NCBI GenBank assembly: GCA_963781395.1
Contig: CAWAFO010000006.1
Location: 29,554 to 93,553 of the forward strand
Length of the DNA: 64,000 nucleotides
Source of the DNA: an uncultured Pseudomonadota bacterium
GTDB taxonomy: Bacteria > Pseudomonadota > Gammaproteobacteria > Burkholderiales > Casimicrobiaceae
Reading direction: 5' to 3'
Within the stretch, counting starts at the first letter, position 1; every line of letters begins with the position of its first letter. This document shows, one piece after another, positions 45,879 through 64,000 of the stretch. The notes below the pieces were generated by a model. That model saw only the letters and a program-made list of their open reading frames with translations, had not been told where the DNA came from and searched no databases. The position numbers and the translations under genes are program-made.

Positions 45879-46799
45879 ATGGCCGCTGCCGTTGCCGCCG
45901 CGCCGAGCGGCTACAGCATCGGTCGCCGGCAGCGGCTCGCGGTGTTCGGCGGACTGCTGCCGGCGATGGTGCTGCTCGCCGTACTCACTCTCGGGCCCGC
46001 GCTGTATCTCTTCGTCGTCAGCCTGACACCGGGGACGCCGACCAACCCCTCGTCGCTGACCGATTTCTCGGCGCCCGCGCAGAATTACCTGAGCGCACTG
46101 CACGACGACCGCTTCGTCGAATCGCTGTGGGTGCAGCTGAAGCTGTCCGCGTCGACGGTCATCGCGCAGACGCTGCTGGGACTCGGCGTGGCGTTGCTCC
46201 TGAATCGTCGCGCCCGTCTCGTGCAGGCGCTGCGCACCGTCTTCCTCATCCCGATGGTGTTGCCGCCCATCGTGGCGGCGCTGATCTGGAAGATCCTCTA
46301 CACGCCGGACATCAGCCCGATCCATCGCGCACTCGCCGCGCTCCACATGCCCGTGTCGTCGCTGATCACCAACCCCGACACCGCGCTGTGGGCGATCGCC
46401 TTCGCCGACACCTGGGAATGGTTTCCCTTCACGATGCTGATCATCCTGGCCGCGCTGCAGATGGTGCCGCGCGAGCCGCTCGAGGCCGCGCAGGTGGATG
46501 GCGCCAGCAGGCTCCAGCTCTTCTGGTTCATCGAGCTGCCGTACATCCGGCCGGCCATCGTGGTGGCCGCGCTGTTCCGGCTGATCGACAGCATCAAGGC
46601 ATTCCCGCTGATCTACGTGCTGACGAGCGGCGGACCCGGCACCGTCACGCAGGTCACCAACTACTACGCGTTCACCCAGGCCTTCAATTACGCCTATTGG
46701 GGCTATGCCAGCGCGATCGCCATCATGCTGACCGCGAGCGTATTCGTCCTGAGCTGGCTGATCGGCAGTCGCGGTGCGAGGTCGGCTACGCATGGCTGA
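45879..46799 (+). CDS. Carbohydrate ABC permease
   Basis: EAAQVDGA EAA motif, LFRLIDSIKAF, GGPG. Confidence 0.9.
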   Translation: MAAAVAAAPSGYSIGRRQRLAVFGGLLPAMVLLAVLTLGPALYLFVVSLTPGTPTNPSSLTDFSAPAQNYLSALHDDRFVESLWVQLKLSASTVIAQTLLGLGVALLLNRRARLVQALRTVFLIPMVLPPIVAALIWKILYTPDISPIHRALAALHMPVSSLITNPDTALWAIAFADTWEWFPFTMLIILAALQMVPREPLEAAQVDGASRLQLFWFIELPYIRPAIVVAALFRLIDSIKAFPLIYVLTSGGPGTVTQVTNYYAFTQAFNYAYWGYASAIAIMLTASVFVLSWLIGSRGARSATHG

Positions 46800-47658
46800 C
46801 GCGCTCGCGCTCGATTCGGCGGGCCGCCGTCCCGGCCGCGCCGCGTGGCGCAAACGCGCCGGCCGCGTGTTGGCCAACCTGGCGCTCGGACTGGTGCTGC
46901 TGTTCGTGCTGTTCCCGATCGTGTGGCTCGTGCAGATGTCGTTCCGTCCCGACGAGGACATCCTCGGCTACCAGCTGCTCTTCGCGCCCACGTTCGCGCA
47001 CTACGCGTCGCTCTCCGAGAGCAAGTTCCTGCATTCGTTCCTCAACAGCGTCGTATCGAGCTGCGTGTCGACACTCGTCGCGCTGATCGTCGGCACGCCG
47101 GCTGCCTATGTGCTCTCGCGCTGGCGCTTCCGCGCGCGCGGCAAGATCGCGATGTGGATCCTGTCGACGCGCATGGCGCCGCAGATCACGTTCACGATCC
47201 CGTTCTTCCTCTTCTATCGGTACGTCGGTCTCAGCGACACCGTCTGGGGTCTCGCGCTGATCTACCTGACGTTCAACCTGGCGCTGGTCATCTGGATGAT
47301 GCAGTCGTTCTTCGACGCCGTGCCGCGGGCGCTCGAGGAGGCGGCGTGGCTCGATGGCGCCAGCATCTGGAGCGCCTTCCTGCGCATCACGCTGCCGTTG
47401 ACGGCGCCGGGACTCGCCGCCGTCGCTGTCCTCTGCTTCATCTTCTCGTGGAACGACTTCTTCTACGCGCTGATCCTGACGCGCACGAAGGCGATGACGG
47501 CGCCCGTGGCCATCATCAATTTCCTGCAATACGAGGGATGGGAATGGGGGAAGATCGCCGCTGGCGGCACCGTGGTCATGCTGCCGGTGGTCATCTTCAC
47601 CGTTCTCGTGCGCAAATGGCTGGTGAGCGGATTGATGGCGGGCAGCGTCAAGGATTGA
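46792..47658 (+). CDS. Carbohydrate ABC permease
   Basis: ALEEAAWLDGA, FIFSWNDFFYA. Confidence 0.9.
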   Translation: MADALALDSAGRRPGRAAWRKRAGRVLANLALGLVLLFVLFPIVWLVQMSFRPDEDILGYQLLFAPTFAHYASLSESKFLHSFLNSVVSSCVSTLVALIVGTPAAYVLSRWRFRARGKIAMWILSTRMAPQITFTIPFFLFYRYVGLSDTVWGLALIYLTFNLALVIWMMQSFFDAVPRALEEAAWLDGASIWSAFLRITLPLTAPGLAAVAVLCFIFSWNDFFYALILTRTKAMTAPVAIINFLQYEGWEWGKIAAGGTVVMLPVVIFTVLVRKWLVSGLMAGSVKD

Positions 47659-47716
47659 CGCGCTCGAAGCCATTGCTTGCCTGTCCTCGCGGCGGACAAC
47701 AAGCGCCTGAAAACTG

Positions 47717-48580
47717 TCAGTGCATCGTCGACGCCGTGCCGCCGCGGTCGGCGTTGAGGCGTGTCACGGTATCGAACTCGAGATCGCGGTTGTCGACGAC
47801 TTTCGCTTCCAGCTCGCCGCTGCCGCGCGGGACGAAATAGAACCGGAAGTTGGGATTCTCGCTGATCGAGAAATCGACGTCTGCGCTCATCACCGGCTTG
47901 CCGTCGTAGCGCACGTCGACGCGACGCACGAAGTGCGGCGCCGCGTACAGACGCGTCACCTGGTCCATCGCCAGGCCCGAATCGTTCGGGTGACTGACCA
48001 TCAGCTGCGCCAGCACGGGCACGCCGGAGGCCGACGCGTCGGCCACCCGCAAGCGCATCCTGCCGAGGTTGGCGCGCGCGGCGATCGCGTCCTTGCCTGC
48101 AGGTGCGGAGCAGCCTCCGGACGCCTTCACGTAGTTGGCCACCATGTGGAACTTGCCGTCCTGCGTCAGCGCGATCGCGCGCACCCAGGTGTACTGCTCG
48201 ACGCGGATGCGGGTCTCGATATCCGCGCGACCGCTGTCGAGCGTGAACTGGAACACCGCCGCGATCGGCGAAGGATTGTTGTCGACGATCAGCCAGATCT
48301 TCTCGATGGAGCGCGCCGGGGTTTGCGCGAATCGGGAGCGGATCGCCACCGGCACGATTGCCGCGTCCTCCGCGCGCTGCGGCGTGTCGAGCGTGATCAC
48401 ATCGGCTGCGGTGTCCATCGGCGCGCCGGCGAACACGTCGGCATGCACCTTCTGCCAGATCTTGCTCGCCTCGGGCGAGGCATCCTGGGCGTGCACCGAC
48501 GCAGCCGTGCACAGCGCCAGCACGAGCGCCACGCGCGCGAGGCATGCGGATGCTCGAGACTGCCGCGGATCGCCGATCAT
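47717..48580 (-). CDS. Quinoprotein-dehydrogenase-associated SoxYZ-like carrier (fused)
   Basis: Signal peptide, TPQRAEDAAIVPV, IVDNNPSP, TRIRV, KASGGC (SoxY-like Cys), MVSHPNDSG (SoxZ-like), ISENP. Confidence 0.85.
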   Translation of the reverse strand: MIGDPRQSRASACLARVALVLALCTAASVHAQDASPEASKIWQKVHADVFAGAPMDTAADVITLDTPQRAEDAAIVPVAIRSRFAQTPARSIEKIWLIVDNNPSPIAAVFQFTLDSGRADIETRIRVEQYTWVRAIALTQDGKFHMVANYVKASGGCSAPAGKDAIAARANLGRMRLRVADASASGVPVLAQLMVSHPNDSGLAMDQVTRLYAAPHFVRRVDVRYDGKPVMSADVDFSISENPNFRFYFVPRGSGELEAKVVDNRDLEFDTVTRLNADRGGTASTMH

Positions 48581-48603
48581 TTGCCCAATATACGCCGCCA
48601 CCG

Positions 48604-49554
48604 TCACTCGCTCCACTCGAGCTCGGCATAGGCCGCGGTGACGTTGCGCCGGTGAAAGACGTCGACCAGTTGCCACCCGGGATCCGCCGGTGGCGTGCTG
48701 GCGGCCAGCGTTTGCGAGAGGCTGAGCCCTTTGCGGATCGCCGCACGCACGTCGCGCTGGAGCTCGCGAAGGTAGCGCTCCTCGGCGTCGAGCGCCTGGG
48801 GCCAGGCGCCGGCCCGGCCGTGCCCCGCGATCGCACGCGCAGCCGGTTGCAGGCGCAGCGCCTCGATCGCCGCGAGGAACCCGCGCAGGTTGCCGTCCAG
48901 CACCGGAAGATGCTCGACGAATAGCAGGTCACCCAGCCAAAGCGTGTCGCTGCCGCGATCGAGCACCGTGAGGTCGCAATCCGTGTGTGCGGTGGGCCAC
49001 GCGCGCAGCCTCAGGATTCGATCGCCGAGGTCCAGGTCGAGCGTGTCGATGACGCTGCGCGTCGGCAGGACAATCGTGCTGCCCTCGGCGACGTCGCCGA
49101 GGTCGCGGTGGAGCGCCTTGAGATAGTTGGGCGCGCGGCGCTGCAGCGCATCGGCCAATCGCGCATGGCCGACGAACTCGGGATGGTCTGCCACGAACGC
49201 GGCGTTGCCGAACACGTGATCGGGATGCGCGTGCGTGTTCACGACATAGCAAACAGGCAGCGGCGTCGTCCGACGAATGGCTTCGCGCAGCGCATGTCCC
49301 ACCGCATAGGTGCCGCCGGTGTCGATGACCGCGACGCAGCGGCTGCCAACCACGAAGCCGAGGTTGGCCACGTCGCCGGCGTTCGCCCGCGACATCTCGG
49401 TCACCGCGCCATAGTGCACGTAGACACCGGGAGCCGGATTCTCGAGGAGGAAGTCCGCGATGTCGGTTGCAGCCGACGCCCGCGCGGCAGAGAAGATCGC
49501 GAGCAAGACCAACAGCCAGCGAGGCCCGGAGACAAACCGACGGGCCGCGTTCAC
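48604..49554 (-). CDS. Quinoprotein relay system zinc metallohydrolase (MBL fold)
   Basis: ANLGFVVG, VIDTGGT, THAHPDH, AHTDCD, GDL, AGHG: full ligand set. Confidence 0.85.
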   Translation of the reverse strand: MNAARRFVSGPRWLLVLLAIFSAARASAATDIADFLLENPAPGVYVHYGAVTEMSRANAGDVANLGFVVGSRCVAVIDTGGTYAVGHALREAIRRTTPLPVCYVVNTHAHPDHVFGNAAFVADHPEFVGHARLADALQRRAPNYLKALHRDLGDVAEGSTIVLPTRSVIDTLDLDLGDRILRLRAWPTAHTDCDLTVLDRGSDTLWLGDLLFVEHLPVLDGNLRGFLAAIEALRLQPAARAIAGHGRAGAWPQALDAEERYLRELQRDVRAAIRKGLSLSQTLAASTPPADPGWQLVDVFHRRNVTAAYAELEWSE

Positions 49555-49572
49555 CTTACCTTCCGCCGGCGC

Positions 49573-49923
49573 CTATCGCGTGATGAAGCAGGCCTTCTTG
49601 GCGTTGGCCTCCAGCTCGCGGAAGGAAGCCACGATCTTCCGGCCGTCCTTGAGGTCGCGCATGACCCCGCCGCGCTCGCCGGCGATCGTCATGCCGTCGG
49701 CTACGGTGGACAGGTCGACGAACGTCGCGTAGTCCATCTTGTCGGCAATCGCGTCGATGGCGCAGGAGCACTTGTACATCGATTCCTGCGGCGGCGCCTT
49801 GCTGTCCTTCATGCAGCCCAGGACGAAATCCACGCGCGCGCGAGTCGGAAAGTCGTTGGCGTGCGCCGGCAGCGCGCCGGCGCACAGGATCAGGAGCGCG
49901 TATCGCGCATGTCGGATGGCCAT
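49573..49923 (-). CDS. Small periplasmic Cys-motif protein
   Basis: Signal peptide, FVLGCM...KCSCAIDAIA; in the xox operon. Confidence 0.75.
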   Translation of the reverse strand: MAIRHARYALLILCAGALPAHANDFPTRARVDFVLGCMKDSKAPPQESMYKCSCAIDAIADKMDYATFVDLSTVADGMTIAGERGGVMRDLKDGRKIVASFRELEANAKKACFITR

Positions 49924-49946
49924 CGGAATTCTCCCGCGATGCGTCG

Positions 49947-50798
49947 CTATTGGACGGGCTCGCCGTGCTCGTCGACCAGCGGAACCGCATATTCGCGCAG
50001 GATCGCGGTGACGGCGGCCTGATTGTCGGCGATGAGCTTGTCCACCGTCGCCCTCCAATCGCGATCGCCCTGGCGCACGCCCATCGCGATCGCGTAGTCG
50101 AACTTGACGCCTGGTTCCGACTGCAACGGCACGATGACGAGATCCATGTTGCGAACGCGCCTGGCGTAGTAACCGGCGATCGGGCCCCAGACGATGGCGG
50201 CGTCGATCCTGCCCTGGGCGAGCTCCTGGTCGACGATCGCGCCCGGGTACTGGTCCGGATCCGGCGACATCATCGGATACGGCTTCGCGCGCGCCTCCAG
50301 CCCGTGCTTGGTCAGCCAAAGGCCCGCGGGCGAACGGTCGTAAACACCGATCACGAGCGACTTCAGGCGCTCGGGCGGCAAGGCGAAGAGGTCGGTGCCG
50401 CGCTTCACGGCGTCGAGCCCCTTGCCCTTCGGATACACGAGCACATAGGTCGAGCGGTAGTACGGCGCGGTGGGCCACGCCTGGTCGTAGTCGGAAGGGA
50501 CGCTCATGACGATGTCGCAGGCGTAGTCTTCGCCGGGCAGCCGGTAGCGCAGCGTATTGCGGATGAAGTTCATCCGCTGCGGAAACGTGTAGTTCTTGAC
50601 CGGCAGGCCGAGCTTTTGCGCGAAGAGGTCGGCGATGCGATTCTCGAAGCCCTCGCCTTTGGCATTCGCGAACGGCAGGTTGCTCGGGTCGATGCACGGG
50701 CGGAACGCGGTGCGTGTTTCCTGCGACTGTGCCGAGGCCGCCGTCGCCGTCAACGCCGCGAACGCCATCGCCGCCAGCACTCGACGATTCATCGCCAT
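49947..50798 (-). CDS. xoxJ: XoxJ/MxaJ-like substrate-binding protein
   Basis: PCIDPSNLPF, GFENRIA, PYYRSTYV, WGPIAGY; start could be GTG 50816. Confidence 0.85.
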   Translation of the reverse strand: MAMNRRVLAAMAFAALTATAASAQSQETRTAFRPCIDPSNLPFANAKGEGFENRIADLFAQKLGLPVKNYTFPQRMNFIRNTLRYRLPGEDYACDIVMSVPSDYDQAWPTAPYYRSTYVLVYPKGKGLDAVKRGTDLFALPPERLKSLVIGVYDRSPAGLWLTKHGLEARAKPYPMMSPDPDQYPGAIVDQELAQGRIDAAIVWGPIAGYYARRVRNMDLVIVPLQSEPGVKFDYAIAMGVRQGDRDWRATVDKLIADNQAAVTAILREYAVPLVDEHGEPVQ

Positions 50799-50812
50799 TG
50801 CGCGCCGCGCGG

Positions 50813-51277
50813 TCACGGCTTGATCTCTTCGACGTGTGTGCGCGTGATGTCGCCGTTCGACCGGCCCTTCAGGTACGCGTAGAGATTGTCGATGTTGTCC
50901 ATCACGGTCTTGCTGTTGGCGAAGCTCACCATGCCCTTCTCGAGCCGGCCGTCGCGCACGGTCTTGACGAAATCCTCCTTGCTGAGCGTCTTCAGGCTTT
51001 CGATCAGCGACGGTCCGACCAGCCCTTGCTGGTTGGCGCCGTGGCAGCGATCGCAGGCCGCCGCGCGCCAGGTGCGGAAGCCTTCCATGGTGTTGTGATC
51101 GACCTTGTAGCCGTCGACAACCGTGTACAGCTTGGTCCCAGCGGCCGCTGCGGGCGCGTTCGCGGCCGGAGCCGCTGCCGCAGCCGCGGGCGGCGCGGGT
51201 GATTGCGCCGAAGCGAGCGCGCAGAAGAGCGTCATGCAAAGCGGCAGGCAATGCCGCGCCTGGAACGAACCATTCAT
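50813..51277 (-). CDS. xoxG: c-type cytochrome, XoxG-like
   Basis: CDRCH heme motif, KGM axial Met; between xoxF and xoxJ; start uncertain. Confidence 0.8.
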   Translation of the reverse strand: MNGSFQARHCLPLCMTLFCALASAQSPAPPAAAAAAPAANAPAAAAGTKLYTVVDGYKVDHNTMEGFRTWRAAACDRCHGANQQGLVGPSLIESLKTLSKEDFVKTVRDGRLEKGMVSFANSKTVMDNIDNLYAYLKGRSNGDITRTHVEEIKP

Positions 51278-51409
51278 CGGGGAAACCCTGGAATCGTGGA
51301 ATCGGATCGCCACGACAGACCCACGTCGGGCGACATTCGGGGATCGCGCGAGGCGACGGCGGAGCGTCGCCGGCGCGGAAATACCACGCCGGCGACGGTA
51401 CCCATCACG

Positions 51410-53221
51410 CTAATTCGGCAGTGCGAAGATGGTGAGCGATCCACCCAGCTCGGTGTAGTCGCGCAGTTCCTTGTAGCCGCCGACGGCGCCCAGCCCGTCC
51501 TGGTCCTTCTCGAGGCCCGCCGCCATGCCGATGCCGGCCCAGCCGCCGATGCCCGAGAACACGCCCATGTACTGCTTGCCCTTGTGCTCGTACGTGAAGA
51601 CGTTGCCGATGATGCCGGACGGCGTCTTGAACTTGAACAAATCCTTGTTCACGTCGTTGGCGTCGACGCACTTGAGGTAACCCTCGAGGGTGCCGTAGCA
51701 GGCGATTCCGCCGGCGGTGGTGAGAACGCCGCTCCACACCGAGAACTTCTCGGCCTTGGACTGCACGATCTTGCCGGTGCCGGCGTCCCACACGGTGAAG
51801 TTGCCCATGTTGTTGCCGCCGGGCGCGGGGTACATCGACAGCGTCGCGCCGACGTACGGCTGGCCCGCCACGTAGTCGATCTTGAACGGCTCGTAATCCA
51901 TGCAGACGTGGTTGGTCGGGATGTAGAACCGGCCGTTGCGCGGATTGAACGATGCCGGCTGCTCGTCCTTGCTGCCGAGCGCCGCCGGGCAGATACCCTT
52001 GCTGTTCACGTCCGGTCCGTTATGGGCGGTGGAGTACTTCGGCACTACTTGCGGCCGTCCCGTCTTCATGTCGACGCCGGTCGCCCAGTTCACCGCCGGG
52101 TCGTACTTCTCGGCGACCAGCAGCTCACCCGTCGTGCGGTCGAGCGTGTAGCCGAAGCCGTTGCGGTCGAAGTGCACCAGCGCCTTCGTGGGCTTGCCCT
52201 TGACGTTGATGTCGGCCAGGATCATTTCATTGACCCCGTCGAAGTCCCATTCGTCGTACGGCGTCATCTGATACGCCCACTTGGCCATGCCGGTGTCGAC
52301 GTCGCGCGCGAACACCGTCATCGACCACTTGTTGTCGCCCGGCCGCTGCGCCGGATTCCACGTCGACGGATTGCCGGTGCCGTAGTAGAGGAGGTTCAGC
52401 GCCTTGTCGTAGCTGTACCAGCCCCACGTCGTGCCGCCGCCGGTCTTCCACTGGTCGCCCTGCCACGTCTTCAGCGACGAGTCTTTGCCGACAGGCTTCA
52501 TCGATCCATCGGTCCAGGCCATCGTCTTGTCGGGATCGACCAGCATCTCGGCGTCAGGCCCGGTGCTGTACGCCTTCCACACCAGGTGGCCGTCGTTGAT
52601 GTTGTACGCCGCCAGGAAGCCGCGCACGCCCCACTCGCCGCCGGAAATGCCCGTGATCACCTTGTCCTTGAACACGTGCGGCGCGTTGGTGTTGACGGCG
52701 CCGAGCTTGGGATCGCCATTCTTCACCGACCAGATGACCTTGCCGGTATTGGCGTCGAGCGCGAGCAGCGTGCTGTCGGCCTGCTGCAGGAAGATCTTGT
52801 TCTCGGCGTACGCCAGGCCGCGGTACACGGTGTCGCAGCACATCTGCGGGATCACCGCCGAGTCCTGCTTCGGCTCGTATCGCCACTTGATCTTCTGCGT
52901 GTCGAGGTCGATCGCGAAGACCTTGTTGGGGAACGGCGTGTGCAGGTACATCGTGTCGCCGATGACCAGGGGCGAGCCTTCGTGGCCGCGCAGCACGCCG
53001 GTCGAGAACATCCAGGCCACCTGCAGCTTGCCGACGTTCTGCGCGTTGATCTGCGTCAACTTGCTGTAACGCTGGTTGTACATGTCGCCGGCCTGCATGG
53101 CCCAGTTATTCGGATTTGCGATGTTCTTCTCGACGTCCGCATTCGCCGCTGCAACCATCGGTACGGCCGCGCAAAGCAGCGCAAGCGTCCCGTCGATCAA
53201 CGATCTCAGAGCCCTGTTCAT
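51410..53221 (-). CDS. xoxF: Lanthanide-dependent PQQ methanol dehydrogenase
   Basis: [10 protein letters not shown], vicinal [20 protein letters not shown] (D-x-D lanthanide motif; MxaF has D-x-A), GLGAVGGY; no mxaI adjacent. Confidence 0.88.
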
Positions 53222-53521
53222 GCTCCCTCCTGGTTGGCCATTGCCAAGTCGAAATGTCGCTAACCGGCGTGCCCGCGTGTGCGTACGCGTGGAGCGCGTC
53301 GAGGCAATGTGCGGCCAGTGTCGCGCCCTGTTTGCACATTGTCAATTTGAACAGTACATTCGGTGCCTTACGCACGTCCCTTTGCCCGGCCTCGTTCGCA
53401 CCCCACGCTCCTACAATTGGCTGTTCCGATCGTGTCACGCGAATCGATGTTGCAGTGCGGTAGAGCGGCTTGGAGTGCGCTATTGGCGCCGCTGCCCTGC
53501 GGTGCAACAAGCGCGAAGGGC

Positions 53522-55599
<2,078 letters not shown>

Positions 55600-55682
55600 C
55601 ACCGGACGATCCGACAGGCTCGTTGGAACGACGCCGAACGGCGCCGACTACGCTGGCAACTCACCAACAGGAGGTCATCGAC

Positions 55683-56258
55683 ATGGCAACTTCCATCCAC
55701 CCCGCGGTCGACAACGGCATCAAGCACGCCGCCGCCAACTTCGCCGGCGGCACGCTGTCCTGCAAGTGCGCCGACAACAAGGTGACGGTGTCGGTCAAGG
55801 GACAATCGGCCCACAATCACGTGTGCGGCTGCACCAAGTGCTGGAAGCCGAAGGGCTCGCTGTTCTCGCAAGTCGCGGTGACCGGCCGCGACAACATCAA
55901 GGTGACCGCCAACGAGCAGAAGCTGAAGGTGGTCGATCCCAGCGCGACGATCCAGCGCCACGCCTGCACCGCCTGCGGCACGCACATGTTCGGGCGCATC
56001 GAGAACAAGGATCACGCGCTGTACGGCATCGACTTCATCCACACCGAGCTGTCGCCCGAATCGGGTTGGTCGCCGCCGGAATTCGCGGCGTTCGTGTCGT
56101 CGATCATCGAGTCGGGCGCCGATCCCGCCAAGATGGGCGACGTGCGCAAGCGGCTGAAGGAGCTCGGCCTCGAGCCCTACGACTGCCTGTCGCCGCCGCT
56201 GATGGACATGCTCGCCACGCACACGGCGAAGCAGAAGGGCACGCTGTATCACGCGTGA
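55683..56258 (+). CDS. gfa: Glutathione-dependent formaldehyde-activating enzyme
   Basis: [44 protein letters not shown]. Confidence 0.95.
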
Positions 56259-57100
56259 GCGTGGAAAACGTCGCCCGCAACCTCTGCTTCGGCGGAGTCC
56301 AGGGCGTCTACCGGCATGCGGCGCAGGAAACGCGCTGTGCGATGCGCTTCGGCGTGTTCCTGCCCCCGCAGGCCCAACACGGCCGCGTGCCGGTGCTGTA
56401 TTGGCTGTCCGGCCTGACATGCACCGAGGAGAACTTCATCGTCAAGGCCGGCGCGCAGCGCGTCGCCGCCGAGCTCGGGCTCGCCATCGTGGTGCCGGAC
56501 ACGAGCCCGCGCGGGCTCGGGTTTCCGGGCGAATCTGATAGCTACGACTTCGGCCTGGGCGCCGGGTTCTACGTCGACGCGACGCAAGCGCCGTGGGCAA
56601 ACGGGTACCGCATGTACTCGTACATCACGCGCGAGTTGCCCGCGCTTATTGAAGCCGAGTTTCCGGTGGACGCGCAGCGCACCGGCATCTTCGGACATTC
56701 GATGGGTGGGCATGGCGCGCTGGTCCTTGCGCTGCGCAATCCGGAGCTATATCGATCGGTGTCGGCGTTTTCGCCCATTGCTTCGCCGATGCGCTGTCCC
56801 TGGGGCGAGAAGGCACTCTCGGGCTATCTCGGGCCGGATCGAGCGGCTTGGCGCGAATACGATGCGAGCGCGCTGATCGCGGATCGCGGGTGGAAGGGAC
56901 CGCCGATTCTGGTCGACCAGGGTACGGCTGATACGTTCCTCAAAACCCAGCTCAAGCCTGAGTTGCTCGAGGAGGCGTGCAGTTCTGCCGGCGTCGCGCT
57001 CGACCTTCGGATGCGCGATGGATACGACCACAGCTACTTCTTCATCGCGACCTTCATCGAGGAGCATCTGCGGCGGCATGCGCGGGCGTTGATGCCCTAG
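56255..57100 (+). CDS. fghA: S-formylglutathione hydrolase (apparently chimeric)
   Basis: [36 protein letters not shown]; GTGA overlap with gfa. Confidence 0.95.
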
Positions 57101-57138
57101 CGTAGCCGGCAACGGCGCCTTCGAGCTCCGCCGTTACG

Positions 57139-57837
57139 TCAAGGCTGCGCGCGACCGGCGTCCTGCCGTCCACCAGGATAGGTTTGTGGTGACCGGTCGT
57201 ACGCCTCCGCACACCGGTCGGAGCAAAACCATGGTCCCATTGGCGTGGCCTTGACGTAGGCCTCGAAGGGCGCGTGCATCTTGCAGACGGGACAGATCCA
57301 GGCAGTGTCAGCGGCCGGCGCCAACTCAATGGAAAAGAGCGGCACGAGGTCGGCGATCGATCGAAGCGCAACGTTGCCGATGCCGCGGGCGACGATTCCC
57401 GCCGTTGTCGCAAAGGTGGCGACGGGCTGCGTTGCCAACATCTGACCCGGCGACGCGATCGCGGCGATGCGCGCCGCGACGTTGACCGTGGAACCGAAGA
57501 GGTCGTTTCCCCGGCGCAGCACGGGACCGTGGTTGATGCCGGTCCTGGTCAGCGGAATCCGTGGTTCGGATCGGCAAGCCGGCAAGAGACGTCCGAGCAC
57601 GCCAAGAGCGGTTTTCGGATCAGCGAATCCGAACATCACTTCATCACCGATCCACTTGATCGGCGCACCGAGAGGACCGAGAGCCTCGCGCACCATTTGC
57701 TCGAAAAGCGTCAGCACCGCGATGGCCGACGCATCTCCATACACGTCGCTGAGCGCGCTGAACCCCGCGAGATCGACGAAGGCGACGGTCGCGAACGTGG
57801 ACTCGAAGCCATCAACGGTCGTGGAAGCAGCGGTCAT
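57139..57837 (-). CDS. Class III adenylate cyclase with C-terminal YHS/TRASH-like metal-binding domain
   Basis: FVDLAGFS, IKWIGDEV, GNDLFGSTVNVAAR; CPVCKM...FCSDRC. Confidence 0.85.
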   Translation of the reverse strand: MTAASTTVDGFESTFATVAFVDLAGFSALSDVYGDASAIAVLTLFEQMVREALGPLGAPIKWIGDEVMFGFADPKTALGVLGRLLPACRSEPRIPLTRTGINHGPVLRRGNDLFGSTVNVAARIAAIASPGQMLATQPVATFATTAGIVARGIGNVALRSIADLVPLFSIELAPAADTAWICPVCKMHAPFEAYVKATPMGPWFCSDRCAEAYDRSPQTYPGGRQDAGRAQP

Positions 57838-57913
57838 GATCGATTTTCGCGCGCCCCGCGTTTGCGGGTCAATTGTCGAACTCACGCGCAGCGTTCTGTC
57901 GCGCACGACACGC

Positions 57914-58591
57914 TCAGCAGCGTCCGCGTAGCACCGCCGGATCGACATCGACGAGGTCACCGATGCGCTCGACGGTCAGGTCCGCCGGTGGATACGCGGC
58001 GGCGTTCGCCGGGTCAAGCGCGTAGTGACCTTGGCGCGCGAACACCGTCGTCAGCCGGCCGCCCCACAGTCCCTTCATCGCGGCGAGGATGCGCAGCTTG
58101 TCGTCGACCATGACGTAGTGGCGCGCCGGAAATCGCCTCTCGACTTCGCTGAGCATGCGTTCCTTGTGGATGTAGATGAGCACGCGCCCGGCGACCGCAT
58201 TCCACAGCCCCGAACGCTGGATCTTGAGTGGCTGGAACACGACGTCGCCGTCGGTGAGAATCACCGGCGTCCCGAAGTGGCCAAGATGCACGATGGCCGC
58301 CAGCGCGCCGGGGTATAGCCGGCTCGCGAACGGATAGTCGACCAGGAACGAGGACATCCGCAGGAGTTCCGGATCGCTCATCGCGTCGAGGCGATAGCGC
58401 TGCAATGCGCCGAGGTAGTCGGCGTAGCCGAGCTCGGTGCGCAGCGCCTCGAAGATGCTCCAATACCGATCCCGATTCGCGGGGCCGAACTCGACCGCCA
58501 GATGCGCGCTCAGATCCTGCTGCACGCGATCGTTGTCGAGCAGCGTATTGTCGCAATCGAGGAGGAACACGACGTCGTCGCGTGCGCTCAT
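57914..58591 (-). CDS. HAD-superfamily hydrolase
   Basis: LLDCDNTL, ILTDGD, QPLKI, MVDDK. Confidence 0.85.
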   Translation of the reverse strand: MSARDDVVFLLDCDNTLLDNDRVQQDLSAHLAVEFGPANRDRYWSIFEALRTELGYADYLGALQRYRLDAMSDPELLRMSSFLVDYPFASRLYPGALAAIVHLGHFGTPVILTDGDVVFQPLKIQRSGLWNAVAGRVLIYIHKERMLSEVERRFPARHYVMVDDKLRILAAMKGLWGGRLTTVFARQGHYALDPANAAAYPPADLTVERIGDLVDVDPAVLRGRC

Positions 58592-58720
58592 GTCATCTCG
58601 CGTTCGAATCAAAATGGTCCGGCCGCGACGGTCGGCCCCGCTGACGCGATTTGAAGCGCCTGGAAATCGGGCAAATGGCAGAGGTTGTGATTCGAATCCG
58701 CCCGCTATCTACCCGAAGGC

Positions 58721-59194
58721 CTATGGAAGCGCGAATAGCTGATCGCAGACCGCTCCGAGTTTTTGCGCAAGCGCCTGGCCCGTGACCTTCGTGGAACCCG
58801 GAACGAGCACGTTGATCACGCAACCACGATCGCCTTTGACCGCCGACACTGCGCCCGCCTCATTCCAGAATGCGGCGTCGCCAATGCCATTGATCGGATG
58901 AGCGCCGGCGATGCGCGGCATCTGCGCGCGAAAAGAGGCGACATTGGCCGCTGACAGCTTGATATATATCGGGTAGCTATTGCATGCCGTGGGATCGGTG
59001 CGCTTGGGGGGCGACGCGCGAGAGCTGAGGATCGCGTCCGTGACTGCGGGCGTCAGATATTTCTCGCAGGCAGTTCCGCCGTTGGCGCTCCACGCGGCGC
59101 CCGTGTCCGCCGCGTGGGCAGGATATTGAAGCAAGGCTAAGCCAAGGCCAAAGGTCATGAGGAATGTGCAGGTTGCGTACGGTATGCGAGTCAT
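58721..59194 (-). CDS. Secreted hypothetical protein
   Basis: AGGAGG RBS, signal peptide, four Cys, GIGDAAFW. Confidence 0.7.
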   Translation of the reverse strand: MTRIPYATCTFLMTFGLGLALLQYPAHAADTGAAWSANGGTACEKYLTPAVTDAILSSRASPPKRTDPTACNSYPIYIKLSAANVASFRAQMPRIAGAHPINGIGDAAFWNEAGAVSAVKGDRGCVINVLVPGSTKVTGQALAQKLGAVCDQLFALP

Positions 59195-59345
59195 GACATG
59201 CCTCCTATGAAGACGGTCGCGTGCCACAAGAGAACCGGCATTGTCTGAACATCTTCAGCCGAGTAAACAAGCATCGTTTGCCCATGGTACTGCAGTACAC
59301 GTCTCCGTCATTTGCCGCCAATAACGTATTGGGGCGACAAATCCA

Positions 59346-59411
59346 CCCATCGCCTCGCCGATTCGCTGCCCGTGGGGTGAGAAGGCGCTTTCAGGCTACC
59401 TTGGACCGGAT
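59346..59411 (+). pseudogene. Internal fragment of a divergent fghA allele
   Basis: Encodes [22 protein letters not shown] versus [22 protein letters not shown] at 56774-56839; 54/66 nt identical, all 12 differences at third codon positions. Confidence 0.9.
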
Positions 59412-59491
59412 GGGGCGGAACGGCGCGATGACTGCAATGGGCCGGGAGCGGCCCCTGTATTGTTCTGGCGGCATCAGCAATTAAGCCAAAT

Positions 59492-60235
59492 ATGAAACGA
59501 GCTCACGTCCCCACCATCGCGCCTCGCTACTGGCTCGGAATCACGCTGGCCAGCATCTTCGGCACCAATCTTGGCGACTTCTACGCCCACAGCAGCGGCC
59601 TGGGACTCATCGGCGGCTTGCCTATTCTCGTCGCGCTCTTCGTTGCAGTCTATGTGATCGAGCGCTTCGACGGGCGTACGCATGATGGCTACTATTGGTT
59701 GTGCATCATCATCTTGCGAACCGGTGCTACCAACATTGCCGACTACATGGCGGGCAGGCGTGGACTGAACATCGACCGACTCACGCTGAGCATCGGCTTG
59801 GGACTGGCAATTGCGTTTCTGGCGTGGTGGTCTGCACGCGCGGAGTTCAAGCTCGGGCAGCATCCTGTTCGCAAAGCGCTTCCGGACACAGGCGGGGTCT
59901 ATTGGCTCGCCATGCTGACGGCCGGTGTGTTCGGAACCGTGATGGGCGATTTCTTCGAGAAGATGATGGGACAAGGGATCGCCAGCCTCATGCTCGGCGT
60001 TGTATTGGCCGTGGCCCTCCTGATCTATCGCCGAGGCATCCTGCGGATGGCTTACGCATACTGGCTGGCGATCGCCGCGGCGCGCACGACAGGAACGGCC
60101 ATCGGCGATTGGCTGGCGGAGAACAAGTTTCTGCACATTGGGCTGCCACTCAGCACGCTGCTCACCGGCATTGCCTTCGTCGCCGCACTCGTTCTCTGGC
60201 GGGATCGGAGGCAGCCGGAACCCGCAGCGGTCTAA
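59492..60235 (+). CDS. COG4705/DUF347-repeat membrane protein
   Basis: Repeated YW..I....GT..GD units (GTNLGD, GATNIAD, GTVMGD, GTAIGD). Confidence 0.8.
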   Translation: MKRAHVPTIAPRYWLGITLASIFGTNLGDFYAHSSGLGLIGGLPILVALFVAVYVIERFDGRTHDGYYWLCIIILRTGATNIADYMAGRRGLNIDRLTLSIGLGLAIAFLAWWSARAEFKLGQHPVRKALPDTGGVYWLAMLTAGVFGTVMGDFFEKMMGQGIASLMLGVVLAVALLIYRRGILRMAYAYWLAIAAARTTGTAIGDWLAENKFLHIGLPLSTLLTGIAFVAALVLWRDRRQPEPAAV

Positions 60236-60434
60236 GCAATCTATTCGATCCGAAAGCGTGGCTCGCGCGAGCCAAAGGCGCAAGGCTTGTTCTATCCGGA
60301 TTCTGCTTCGCCCCGGCAACGCTTCTAGGCGAACAGAAATATCTGTGCGCGCAGAAGATCATCAGGCCCAATCCGACAACGAAGCCGGACACGACACCGG
60401 AAATGAACAGCAGCCATCAGCGAGAACGCGACCA

Positions 60435-60470
60435 GGGTTCTATGTCGATGCGACGCAAGCGCCGTGGACA
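60435..60470 (+). repeat. 36-bp direct repeat of fghA 56564-56599 (att-core-like)
   Basis: 33/36 identical; both read [11 protein letters not shown]; two of three mismatches are synonymous. Confidence 0.85.
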
Positions 60471-60509
60471 TCCTGCTTTACGGCACGACGAACCTCGACA
60501 TATTCTTCC

Positions 60510-62675
60510 TCAGTCTTGAACTGGTTGCGCAGTGCGCGCTGCAGTTGCCGAGACGCGCCCGCCTGTCTTCGCCACCGATTCGAGCGTTTCGAGGAACGCG
60601 CGCACGACGGTCTCCTCGGCCGTGTCATCTGTGATGAGCGTCGCGAGGAGGTCGAGAGTTGCCTCATCGACGCCAAGCTGGCGCAGTTCCGCAAGGCTGC
60701 GGGGCAAGCTGCCATTTGGCGTGCGCCGATATTGCTCGTCGAGGAAGCGCACTAGATGCTCGAGTGCGACAACGGTCTCGGCCCGGTCGGGGGTTTCAAA
60801 CAGATCGTGGAAGAGCGCTGGCAGAAATGACTCAAAGATATTGGAAGCTCTGCTTTTCGGGGCCTCCGTCCTGGCAGAGGAATACGCTCGACCAGGTTCC
60901 GCGGGGCTGGGGCAGAACGTCGCGGTATCGAAATGAAGGCTCCTCACGACGCATCGAACGCTGCCCACACCGCCCCACCCCGCCGCATGCATCTGCGCGA
61001 CTTGCGCCAGTCGTGGTAGGTCCACCGCCTTCTCACCCTCCGCGCGTTCATGCACGACGATGAAATTGGTGGAGTCGGTGAGCAGTTGATATTGCAGCGC
61101 TAGCGCGAGGCGCGACTCAGCATCCGCGGTCTCGATGCGCTTGGCTCCCGCCATCCGCGCGAACGTCTCGCCTGCTTCAATGGTGGCAGACATATTCACG
61201 CGCGATACCAGCGACTCGCTGCTATCGGCGGGCACGAGGTGCATCGCCACTTCGCCGGTCGGCGCGGCGTCAAAGCCCGCGAAAACGTGAATCGTCTCGC
61301 CGCCGAAGAGACCTCGCGGCATGGGCGTAACCCACGTCGGCTCCGCCGGCCAAGTCACATCGGCATGATCCACACGCGGACTGCGCAGCCTGGCGAACAT
61401 GCGAAGGATGCCGGCCTCGGCATCCTCGCTGGGTGCTACGAACTCACATGCGCCACCCGTTGCTTCGGCGAGCTGACGCAGCACGCCTTCGGCCGGTGCC
61501 GCCCCGATGCCGACGGTGAACACCCGTTGCCCCGCTTTGCGCGCCGCGGCCACCAGCGAATCGGCTTTCCAGATTTCGCCATCGGTGATGAGGAGCACAT
61601 CCGCCGCGCCTTCTCTGCCGCCCAATGCGAAGACCGAACGCAGCGCGGCCTCCATTTCAGTGCCGCCCAGATCCGCGGACATTGCCGCCAAGTGCTTCGC
61701 GCATTTTCTGACGACCTCCGGTGACGCCGCCCTCAACGTGTCGAAATCGTGATGCACCGTGCTGCCGAATCGAGACAGCGTGAACTTGTCCGCCGGCGTG
61801 AGGCCCGCGAATATACGGTGCAGTGCGCGCCTCGCGGCTTCCATGCTGTCCCCGCTCATCGAGCCGGAACAGTCGACAAGGACTTTGAGCTGAAGGGGTG
61901 CCTCCGACTGGTCGCGCGGCACATCGGCGCAAAAGCTCGCGAGTGTCACGTAACCGTTCCCGTCACGGGCGACGGTTGTCAGGGGCGTCGCGGCGAGATC
62001 ATCGATGGCCAGGACGAAATCGCGATCCAGGTAGGCGTCCTGCGCAAGGGATATCGTGACGCCGTCGTCACCGGCAACGGTGGCGATCCGGTGCGAGGGC
62101 GAAGTGATCCGTCCTTTGGCAATGGATCCGGACACATCGACGGTCAACGCAAACGGATAAGCGACCGCCAGGTCGTTGATCGGCTGTTGATGGGGCTGCA
62201 GTCCCCCCGCCGACGGATCGCCATACCGGGGTGCGATGACGGTTGGCACCGCGAGGCGTACGCTGCGGTGCTCGAATCGCAATAGCTGCGCGTAGCGGAA
62301 GCGAATCGTCGCTTCCTCCCCCGCCATCACGTTCCCGAGATTGACGGTGCAGAGACCGTTGCCGGCGCGCTCCAGCATGATCGCGGTATCGCCCTTTTCA
62401 AGAGCCTCCTCGTACTGTTCCTCAGCCGCACTCTTTTCCACTACGATGCCGGTCAGCAGCTTCCCATTGAGCTGCACCGCGAAGTCGAGCAGGACGGCCA
62501 CTGACGGCAACGGAAACGTGTAAACAGCCTCGATGTTGGTCGAGGTGGCATTGCGATAGCGTTGCTCGACCGTGAGCTCGAACAGCAGACCGTTGAGCTT
62601 GCCCTTGGCAGTGACGCCCTGAAGCGCCATCGCCTCGCCGGTCACCGATTTGAGAATCGCCGCTTTCTGGTCCAT
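60510..62675 (-). CDS. VIT plus vWA domain protein (possible C-terminal frameshift)
   Basis: VIT: VEQRYRN...IEAVYTFPLPS; MIDAS DCSGS, TDG; QYQLLTDSTNFIVV. Confidence 0.88.
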   Translation of the reverse strand: MDQKAAILKSVTGEAMALQGVTAKGKLNGLLFELTVEQRYRNATSTNIEAVYTFPLPSVAVLLDFAVQLNGKLLTGIVVEKSAAEEQYEEALEKGDTAIMLERAGNGLCTVNLGNVMAGEEATIRFRYAQLLRFEHRSVRLAVPTVIAPRYGDPSAGGLQPHQQPINDLAVAYPFALTVDVSGSIAKGRITSPSHRIATVAGDDGVTISLAQDAYLDRDFVLAIDDLAATPLTTVARDGNGYVTLASFCADVPRDQSEAPLQLKVLVDCSGSMSGDSMEAARRALHRIFAGLTPADKFTLSRFGSTVHHDFDTLRAASPEVVRKCAKHLAAMSADLGGTEMEAALRSVFALGGREGAADVLLITDGEIWKADSLVAAARKAGQRVFTVGIGAAPAEGVLRQLAEATGGACEFVAPSEDAEAGILRMFARLRSPRVDHADVTWPAEPTWVTPMPRGLFGGETIHVFAGFDAAPTGEVAMHLVPADSSESLVSRVNMSATIEAGETFARMAGAKRIETADAESRLALALQYQLLTDSTNFIVVHERAEGEKAVDLPRLAQVAQMHAAGWGGVGSVRCVVRSLHFDTATFCPSPAEPGRAYSSARTEAPKSRASNIFESFLPALFHDLFETPDRAETVVALEHLVRFLDEQYRRTPNGSLPRSLAELRQLGVDEATLDLLATLITDDTAEETVVRAFLETLESVAKTGGRVSATAARTAQPVQD

Positions 62676-62677
62676 GT

Positions 62678-63097
62678 TCAGTCCTTGTTCTTGATGTTCT
62701 GATAGAGCGTCAATGCGCCCTGGAAGAATTCCCGCGCCTGTTCCGGCGTCAGCCCTGCGCGTGACGGCTCGAGCGTGACCTCGATCCCGTCCGCCACCAC
62801 CAGGTGACTCCACACTTCGACCGTTCCTGTGCCGCGCGGTCTTGGCGGGACCGGCGGCGTCGAACCGTGCAGCAGGTCGCCGATCCTTTCCAGCGACACG
62901 CCGGCGTCCGTCCACTTCCGGATCAGCAGCAGCTGCTCCAGGTGGCGGCTCGTGTAATGAGCGGCCCGCGTTTCGCCAACGGGACGGTCGACCAGGCCGA
63001 GCTGAATGTAGTAACGGACGGTGCGCTTCGGCAGCTCGGACAGCGTGCACAGCTCGTCGAGGGTGTAGGTACGTTCGGGGACGTTCGCGCCTTTCAT
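62678..63097 (-). CDS. MerR-type HTH protein
   Basis: YTLDELCTLSELPKRTVRYYIQLGLVDRP, AHYTSRHL; 2 nt from the vWA start. Confidence 0.85.
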   Translation of the reverse strand: MKGANVPERTYTLDELCTLSELPKRTVRYYIQLGLVDRPVGETRAAHYTSRHLEQLLLIRKWTDAGVSLERIGDLLHGSTPPVPPRPRGTGTVEVWSHLVVADGIEVTLEPSRAGLTPEQAREFFQGALTLYQNIKNKD

Positions 63098-63110
63098 ACA
63101 GCTAATTACG

Positions 63111-63132
63111 CCAGTACTACTGTACTTGTCAA
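63111..63132 (-). promoter_or_regulatory. -35 element with a palindrome in the spacer, upstream of the MerR-vWA operon
   Basis: Minus strand TTGACA followed by AGTAC-AGTA-GTACT dyad and a TAAT-containing -10-like box. Confidence 0.5.
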
Positions 63133-63164
63133 GCGGCGCCGGTCGGCCGATCCGCCCTGCTCCG

Positions 63165-64000
63165 CTACGGTCCGCGGCCAGCAACCCAATCGGCCTCCAA
63201 CTTCGTAGCCATCCGGAACATGGCCAGCGTGTCGTGGCGGCAGTAGCGGATGAGTTGCTCGCGCAGGTCCGCCTGCCTCGACGGATCGGCATCAGGGTCG
63301 ACGAGTTCGAGATACGCATCCATCGCGCCGCCGCCGTCACGAATGCCGGGGAGCGTCGCGTACGACAGGGCCGGATCGACGGTCGGCAGCACAGCCTTGA
63401 GCGACCACGATCCGTTCATTCCGGGGTCGTAGTAGTGCTCGACGAACATCGGGTGAAGATCGACGATCCTGTCGATGATGGCGTCGATCGCGCCGGAATA
63501 CGCCGGCAAGTCACGCGCAAGCTCGGCAAGACGGCCCTTCTCGAACGACGCGTACCAAACGCAAATCGGCCCATCCGCTTCCACCACCTCAATCAGCGAG
63601 CGGACAAAACGCTCCCGAGGGTCCTGTGAATCGGGAGCCAGAAATCCGCGATGCTCGAGCGCGCCGGAGGTGCGCTGGACGTGGCACGACCACTGGAAGG
63701 TGATTTGTGCGTATGGGCGCATCCCGGCGAATCTCGGCAACGCCGGATTGCTGGTCTCGAAATCGACGTAATACCTCGGGTAAGGGAGTTGCGAAAGCAG
63801 CGGCCCCAGCGCCTCGCCGACGATACGTGAGCGCTGAAGGTGGGCGCTCTTGACCACTCGCTGCCGATCATTGATTTCGTCATCGGGAACCTGCACCAGC
63901 TCGAAGATGCCGCGCGTCCGCCAATTCGCCAGTTTGTCCACGGCGATCCGCGGCAAGACGTCCGGCCGATGCTCGCTCGACTTGTACGGATCGCAATGGT
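63165..64000 (-). CDS. DUF2779-type (RNase H-like) protein, C-terminal part; continues beyond right edge
   Basis: YPRYYVDFET, RPYAQITFQWSCH, YASFEKGRL, GSWSLKAVLP, YCRHDT. Confidence 0.75.
   Translation of the reverse strand, partial: HCDPYKSSEHRPDVLPRIAVDKLANWRTRGIFELVQVPDDEINDRQRVVKSAHLQRSRIVGEALGPLLSQLPYPRYYVDFETSNPALPRFAGMRPYAQITFQWSCHVQRTSGALEHRGFLAPDSQDPRERFVRSLIEVVEADGPICVWYASFEKGRLAELARDLPAYSGAIDAIIDRIVDLHPMFVEHYYDPGMNGSWSLKAVLPTVDPALSYATLPGIRDGGGAMDAYLELVDPDADPSRQADLREQLIRYCRHDTLAMFRMATKLEADWVAGRGP

Follow-up and report, generated by a model that had tools for sequence, protein, structure and literature searches.

An incomplete piece of fghA

How did a short, incomplete copy of fghA come to lie downstream of an intact one in the genome of an uncultured soil bacterium? 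The window analyzed here was a 64 kb stretch of this genome, and all positions are given as window coordinates unless a relative is named. The resident gene, i.e., the intact copy at 56255–57100 (+), codes for the S-formylglutathione hydrolase of formaldehyde detoxification (TIGR02821, 445.8 bits against a cutoff of 281.7; Pfam Esterase, E 5e-62) and is the last gene of an MBL-frmA-gfa-fghA operon. The incomplete copy, fragment 1 (59346–59428, +), corresponds to residues ~170–197 of another fghA allele and is truncated at both ends. Within its core (59346–59411, +), 21 of 22 amino acids were identical to FghA residues 173–194 (56774–56839) and 12 of 66 nucleotides differed from the resident gene, all 12 of them at codon position 3 (11 synonymous changes and one ATG to ATT replacement, M>I); if differences fell randomly over codon positions, the probability of this pattern is (1/3)^12 = 1.9e-6. 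The match was recovered within the window by tblastn (E 5e-11) and blastn (E 1.4e-11), extended by repeat search to an ungapped 83 nt at 80% identity (59346–59428 versus 56774–56856), and assigned by the NCBIfam fghA equivalog TIGR02821 to model positions 170–197 of the translated fragment (E 7e-6), with neither TIGR02821 nor Pfam matching anything in the translated flanks beyond these model positions. These analyses confirmed an earlier note on this DNA, which had counted 22 codons with 21 identical residues and 12 nucleotide differences exclusively at position 3, and supported homology as far as 59428.

The reading frame of fragment 1 was preceded by an in-frame stop (TAA just before 59326), lacked an ATG, GTG, or TTG start, and stayed open for 56 codons up to an ATGA at 59492, where its TGA overlaps the ATG of a DUF347 gene. 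Only ~28 of the 281 fghA codons are present, the native stop is missing, and neither flank resembles fghA, bearing out the description of a piece without start, proper stop, or adjoining fghA sequence. Resemblances of the frame tail to FghA residues 44–49 (PVLYW) or to the C-terminus (RRH) were rejected, as this stretch is the native upstream region of DUF347. Compared to functional alleles, the window copy has accumulated the replacements M>I, R>G, A>E, and W>R. Significant family homology, truncation, and decay or loss in orthologous copies were all found, as in a pseudogene fragment, and fragment 1 is a real, non-functional leftover of another fghA allele.

Junctions and decay in independent data

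Contigs from six independent soil metagenomes (X1, X4, X5, X8, X10, and X12), all short and one run possibly being the source sample, spanned one or both junctions of fragment 1 with 0–1 differences (X labels denote metagenome runs and L labels the syntenic loci of relatives or homologous loci). The complete fragment was spanned in X1 (59146–59685), X4 (59292–59606), and X8 (59205–59531), and the left junction was covered in X5 (59200–59401), X10 (59270–59425), and X12 (59250–59367). A contig from X2 (60371–60617) covered the second fghA fragment described below, also with 0–1 differences. The same architecture with the same junctions was present in L035, an 839-kb contig from a different sample and a separate assembly.

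The L035 copy of fragment 1 carried the derived states of the window copy (ATC, GCC>TCC, ATT, TGC, CCG, and GGT) and had the same left and right borders, such that the two copies are of one origin. It reads PILSSPIRCPWGE*ALSAS..., with a stop codon and several indels, and the fragment is therefore decaying; it was absent from L036 and L031. Fragment 1 is thus old and decaying rather than a recent capture. Lineage-specific changes numbered ~2 in the window copy and ~15 in the L035 copy. The window and L035 shared >99% identity over the DUF347 coding sequence and only ~75–80%, with indels, over the 150 nt upstream of it including fragment 1, and they differed by ~6% in the left flank, a contrast around fragment 1 that is a fine-scale recombination mosaic. 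Signs of an RNA were sought at fragment 1 with Rfam (0 matches), a tRNA search (none), and folding (z = 0.3, insignificant), and a consensus scan found no promoter-like site there; no RNA-seq run was found that contained this sequence.

A second fragment, the DUF347 module, and the right junction

The earlier note had called fragment 1 an orphan. No fghA sequence adjoins it, but it is not alone, as another fghA piece is found 1 kb further right and together they enclose a DUF347 gene. Fragment 2 (60435–60473, +) corresponds to residues 103–115 and abuts the right edge of the variable slot described below. Sensitive tblastn and repeat searches showed it to be identical to the resident gene (56564–56599) at 33 of 36 nt, with synonymous differences, and it was also found in L035 and L036 with a common TAT state. 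The bracketed gene codes for a DUF347 membrane protein (59492–60235, +; Pfam PF03988, E 1.6e-32) and is the cargo of what is termed here module A. Both fragments are co-oriented with fghA, the C-proximal piece lying to the left of DUF347 and the N-proximal piece to the right. A candidate terminator, consisting of a GC hairpin and a T-rich run (59439–59454, +), lies between fragment 1 and DUF347, this call coming from a consensus scan only, in which the number of hairpins found was not above that in shuffles. The spacer between DUF347 and fragment 2 (60236–60434) was ~85% conserved in L036 and mostly deleted in L035 according to the alignment, and a contig from X6 had a joint from 60224 to 60413 in this region.

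Homologs of the DUF347 gene (50–75% identity) occurred in unrelated contexts. Neither fghA nor pieces of it were found near DUF347 in any of 32 loci (30 from GTDB and the two closest metagenome homologs), which also shared no flanks, and homology to other DUF347 loci ended ~20 nt upstream of the ATG. The nearest outside homolog of this gene (74% amino acid identity; L042, 4348–9897 of that locus) was situated amid transposase and integrase fragments (HTH_Tnp_1, Arm-DNA-bind_3, and DDE_Tnp_1), from which it follows that this gene family is often carried on mobile DNA.

On the right, the C-terminal ORF of a VIT/vWA gene (60440–60715, −) runs into the module, with fragment 2 in antisense supplying its last 12 codons and stop. 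In the window, L035, and L036, ~19 ancestral codons at the end of this ORF have been replaced, with the junction at ~60477; L031 and L041 retain homology to each other as far as the stop of the C-terminal vWA ORF, which in them ends in ...EVRR(P/T)VNAVV(A/V)GAG...ARF*. The right joint was illegitimate, since the neighboring vWA ORF was clipped and its last ~19 codons overwritten. As a separate observation, the VIT/vWA frame (60510–63050, −) was a single ORF of 846 codons in the window and was split by single-base indels in L031 (14195–16457 of that locus) and L035 (2607–4233), which could be either true frameshifts or long-read homopolymer errors.

A hypervariable slot between fghA and VIT/vWA

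The fragments and the DUF347 gene lie in a strain-variable slot (57093–60477) that extends from the fghA stop to the convergent VIT/vWA gene. Syntenic loci of relatives were fetched by exact-protein look-up, and those with the same flanks had at least four other slot contents. The left part of the window slot is occupied by module B, comprising three ORFs (57139–57837, 57914–58591, and 58721–59194, all −; gene calls in L031) with no PADLOC match and one weak Pfam match among them; more distant homologs of the 157-aa left neighbor occurred in unrelated contexts. The ORF at 57139–57837 (−) displayed a faint and partial match to adenylate/guanylate cyclase (profile positions 103–170 of 183) and may be another remnant. 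Domain searches identified no integrase or recombinase in the slot variants or flanks examined, and no tRNA was found in the window.

The L031 locus was 99.8% identical to the window over 46255–59336 and 98.5% over 60468–64000, replacing 59337–60477 with an unrelated 1.17-kb segment (L031 13083–14249) and having no fghA pieces. This segment encodes an HNH restriction-like nuclease (Pfam HNH_2; PADLOC type II restriction-like, E 4e-18) where the window has DUF347, such that the slot exchanges defense-like cargo. The density of SNPs between L031 and the window climbed toward the swapped segment from both sides, a gradient that marks import through homologous recombination. L035, ~97% identical to the window, contained DUF347 together with both fghA pieces. 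L036 (~88% identical) had lost 59300–60180 and retained the last ~18 DUF347 codons with a mutated stop, the spacer, and fragment 2; the arrangement therefore predates the split of L036. Two further relatives, L041 and L044 (FghA 92–93% identical at the amino acid level), had, like the window, frmA-gfa-fghA to the left and vWA-MerR-DUF2779 to the right, with a slot (57093–60477 in the window) occupied by unrelated cargo (a 749-aa and a 234-aa ORF) and devoid of fghA pieces. The presence of alternative contents between the same flanks identifies the fghA-vWA interval as a hypervariable slot and, as breakpoints lay in the flanking conserved genes, the properties of a horizontal gene transfer (HGT) hotspot were observed.

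Two side observations concern the same region. A 151-nt contig from X6 matched 59280–59345 at 94% and continued as TTTGCAAGGAGGGCGGGATTCGAACC..., resembling the 3' end of a minus-strand tRNA; it is another slot variant that uses the 59345/59346 junction. To the right of the slot, the DUF2779 protein beside MerR-vWA (L031 16947–18416, from ~63200 onward in the window) matched Cas4-like nuclease models (PADLOC E 1e-8), and further right a WYL gene in L031 and a NERD/UvrD gene in L041 gave the neighborhood the appearance of a defense island.

Mosaic structure of the resident fghA

Comparison of the window with L041 revealed a step in divergence within fghA, with 6 mismatches in 227 nt (2.6%) before 56482 and 88 in 619 nt (14.2%) after it (Fisher 2e-7). 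Over frmA, gfa, and the 227 nt at the 5' end of fghA, the two differed by ~3%, and the right flank was only 87% identical. Third-position identity was 0.91 in frmA, 0.93 in gfa, 0.87 in fghA codons 1–115, and 0.68 in the remainder of fghA. A drop in third-position GC content (0.88 to 0.77; P 0.02) occurred in the same half of fghA, and codon 130 gave the best change point. The step inside the gene indicates that exchanged tracts end within fghA and that its 3' two-thirds (56482–57092, +) travel with the cargo. The functional fghA is thereby a mosaic, and the gene is the left homology arm of the slot exchange.

Affinity of the fragment 1 allele

The closest allele to the fragment 1 core was that of L041 (7 of 66 positions different, i.e., 59 of 66 identical), followed by those of L035 (resident gene; 9 of 66), L033 (11 of 66), the window (resident gene; 12 of 66), and L032 (14 of 66), and nearly all differences from these five functional alleles were at position 3. 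Functional alleles within the clade differed mutually by 4–10 over the same core, placing the fragment 1 allele within or at the edge of the pool of the species complex. The proposal of the earlier note that the piece derived from a separately evolved functional allele was consequently supported, both by the restriction of its differences from the resident gene to position 3 and by its greater closeness to alleles of relatives. Its statement that this was not a local duplication was too strong, because the resident fghA is itself a mosaic, and fragment 1 may for the same reason be what remains of an earlier resident allele, the intact version of which was subsequently replaced; what stands is that the two sequences diverged while still coding.

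The search for a donor taxon suggested in the same note found no foreign donor. A degenerate-codon pattern for the 22 residues, scanned against JGI metagenome contigs, retrieved only two full-length fghA genes (L032 and L033), which were rejected as donors given that their distances (14 of 66 and 11 of 66) were no improvement on L041. Among the best 120 FghA homologs, the fragment 1 peptide occurred only in the resident lineage. In the runs containing the organism, no contig that matched fragment 1 alone (≥90%) continued into fghA, so that no intact gene of the fragment 1 allele is visible in those runs, and an intact copy of this allele directly followed by DUF347 was not found in the genomes and contigs searched.

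Origin of the fghA pieces

The slot is strain-variable, exchanged tracts end in fghA, and the two pieces bracket an older DUF347 module and are themselves old and decaying or lost. The reading preferred here, to which a probability of roughly 60% is given, derives both pieces from the 3' regions of former fghA alleles of this species complex, stranded as relics in a hotspot whose start lies within fghA. On two or more occasions, DNA carrying a new fghA 3' part together with new cargo would have been added rather than swapped, through homologous crossing-over in the 5' portion of fghA combined with an illegitimate distal joint (homology-facilitated illegitimate recombination) or, as an alternative route, by Campbell-type insertion of a circularized fragment. 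Part of the previous fghA copy would have been stranded downstream of the new cargo on each occasion, and most of each stranded copy would have been deleted afterwards. Long direct repeats of fghA around cargo are expected to be unstable, and only arrays trimmed to short, diverged pieces would persist, the surviving 83 and 39 nt presumably being of insufficient length or similarity for recombination with the intact gene. This proposal would account for the restriction of differences to wobble positions, both alleles having remained functional up to displacement, as well as for the common strand, the piece-cargo-piece order, and the later decay or loss.

The location of both pieces on the fghA strand is as expected of stranded copies. 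Several observations count against stranding: each piece derives from the interior of the gene and falls short of the fghA stop, such that at least two extra deletions must be assumed; module A and both pieces were swapped as a unit in L031, and the X6 contig changes exactly at 59345/59346; none of the genomes searched had an intact fragment 1 allele with DUF347 directly behind it; and the window copy of fragment 1 is far better preserved than that of L035, an asymmetry that stranding leaves unaccounted for. The unit swap and the X6 junction also fit an arrival of the pieces as the two ends of the DUF347 segment. Such an arrival is an unlikely explanation, in which the pieces were either the termini of a captured donor fragment, linear or circularly permuted, or templated filler copied from the then-resident fghA; in the filler variant, they would mark both junctions of one complex illegitimate insertion, made by end-joining capture or replication template switching. 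The position of the pieces within ~10 nt of the ends of the 1.14-kb unit swapped between the window and L031, their shortness and sharp borders on both sides, the clearly illegitimate right junction with its overwritten last ~19 codons of the vWA tail, and the other sequence joined at 59345/59346 in X6 would all follow. However, none of the 32 DUF347 loci elsewhere had fghA pieces and homology to them ended ~20 nt upstream of the ATG, random filler would have fallen on the fghA strand twice with a chance of 1 in 4, and a permuted donor still needs two internal deletions.

A more doubtful explanation is that fghA serves as the att site of integrative elements that bring a replacement 3' part, the fragments being attR-type remnants of a tandem array. 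The order of intact gene, cargo, partial gene, cargo, and partial gene, all co-oriented, agrees with such an array, as do the 33 of 36 identical positions between 56564–56599 and 60435–60470 and the composition and divergence step inside fghA. Against this, no integrase or recombinase was present in the slot variants and flanks examined, the remnants cover non-overlapping residues (170–197 and 103–115) and thus have no common core, neither extends to the fghA 3' end, and the divergence step at 56482 lies ~80 nt upstream of the proposed core (56564–56599). A literature search retrieved no paper that names fghA as an integration site or links it to island integration.

Retention of fragment 1 by selection, as an upstream ORF or leader of DUF347 or as a regulatory RNA, is very improbable. 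The 56-codon open frame ending in ATGA at 59492, the identity of the fragment in six metagenomes, and the much better preservation of the window copy compared to that of L035 would be in keeping with a function; yet the frame has no start codon, its last codons belong to the native upstream region of DUF347, and the piece matched no Rfam family, had no significant fold or promoter-like site, was missing from L036 and L031, and was broken by a stop and indels in L035 despite a DUF347 gene >99% identical. Finally, a chimeric assembly of two organisms at fragment 1, the possibility by which the earlier note stood to be overturned, was suggested by the origin of the window from a metagenome assembly and the abrupt change of sequence at 59346 and is practically ruled out by short-read contigs from at least six samples and several studies that cover 59146–59685 and 60371–60617 and by the identical junctions of L035 from another sample, unless all data share one contaminated source.

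Comparison with known systems and significance

Hotspots of HGT between conserved core genes are reportedly known, and later work is said to include integrase-free hotspots of defense islands. The fghA-vWA slot is similar to core-gene-flanked hotspots in its conserved flanks, at least four alternative contents, and raised recombination in the flanking core gene, and to defense hotspots in that some of its cargo or neighborhood is defense-like (the HNH restriction-like gene and the vWA-MerR-DUF2779 neighborhood with its Cas4-like member). It differs in that the left crossover zone is inside the flanking gene and earlier 3' versions of that gene were left behind as fragments. Homology-facilitated illegitimate recombination, a reportedly established process, resembles the proposed stranding in that a one-sided anchor, here fghA, and an illegitimate distal joint bring in foreign DNA and leave part of the recipient gene stranded, and the right junction in the slot is demonstrably illegitimate, as the clipped vWA ORF indicates; at this locus the mechanism is only inferred and extra deletions are needed. 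The attL/attR target duplicates of islands in the 3' ends of tRNA or protein genes are likewise co-oriented, partial copies of another allele at module boundaries downstream of an intact gene, whereas here a recombinase and common core are lacking, the pieces are internal and short of the 3' end, and the crossover lies off the repeat. Ordinary pseudogene remnants share with fragment 1 the truncation at both ends, the untranslatable frame, the decay in sister strains, and the deletion in others, but the source here was a displaced allele of the neighboring intact gene rather than a paralog that died in place.

Functionally, fragment 1 is an ordinary gene relic, or genome debris, that records how a hotspot was rebuilt. 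The piece itself does nothing, and its value is as a marker of a slot rebuilt by recombination starting inside a housekeeping gene. This slot is hypervariable and partly defense-like, and older fghA alleles survive in it as datable fossils of an uncultured soil bacterium. It is conceivable, as a tentative extension that is itself rather doubtful, that fghA anchors an integrase-free, serial accretion of cargo, every import supplying a replacement 3' part of the gene along with cargo and stranding a piece of the allele before it, with the slot as a stratified record of past alleles and the short, diverged relics possibly stabilizing the array. Should serial accretion prove to hold in many genomes, relics of this kind could serve to put acquisitions in order at hotspots that lack integrases.
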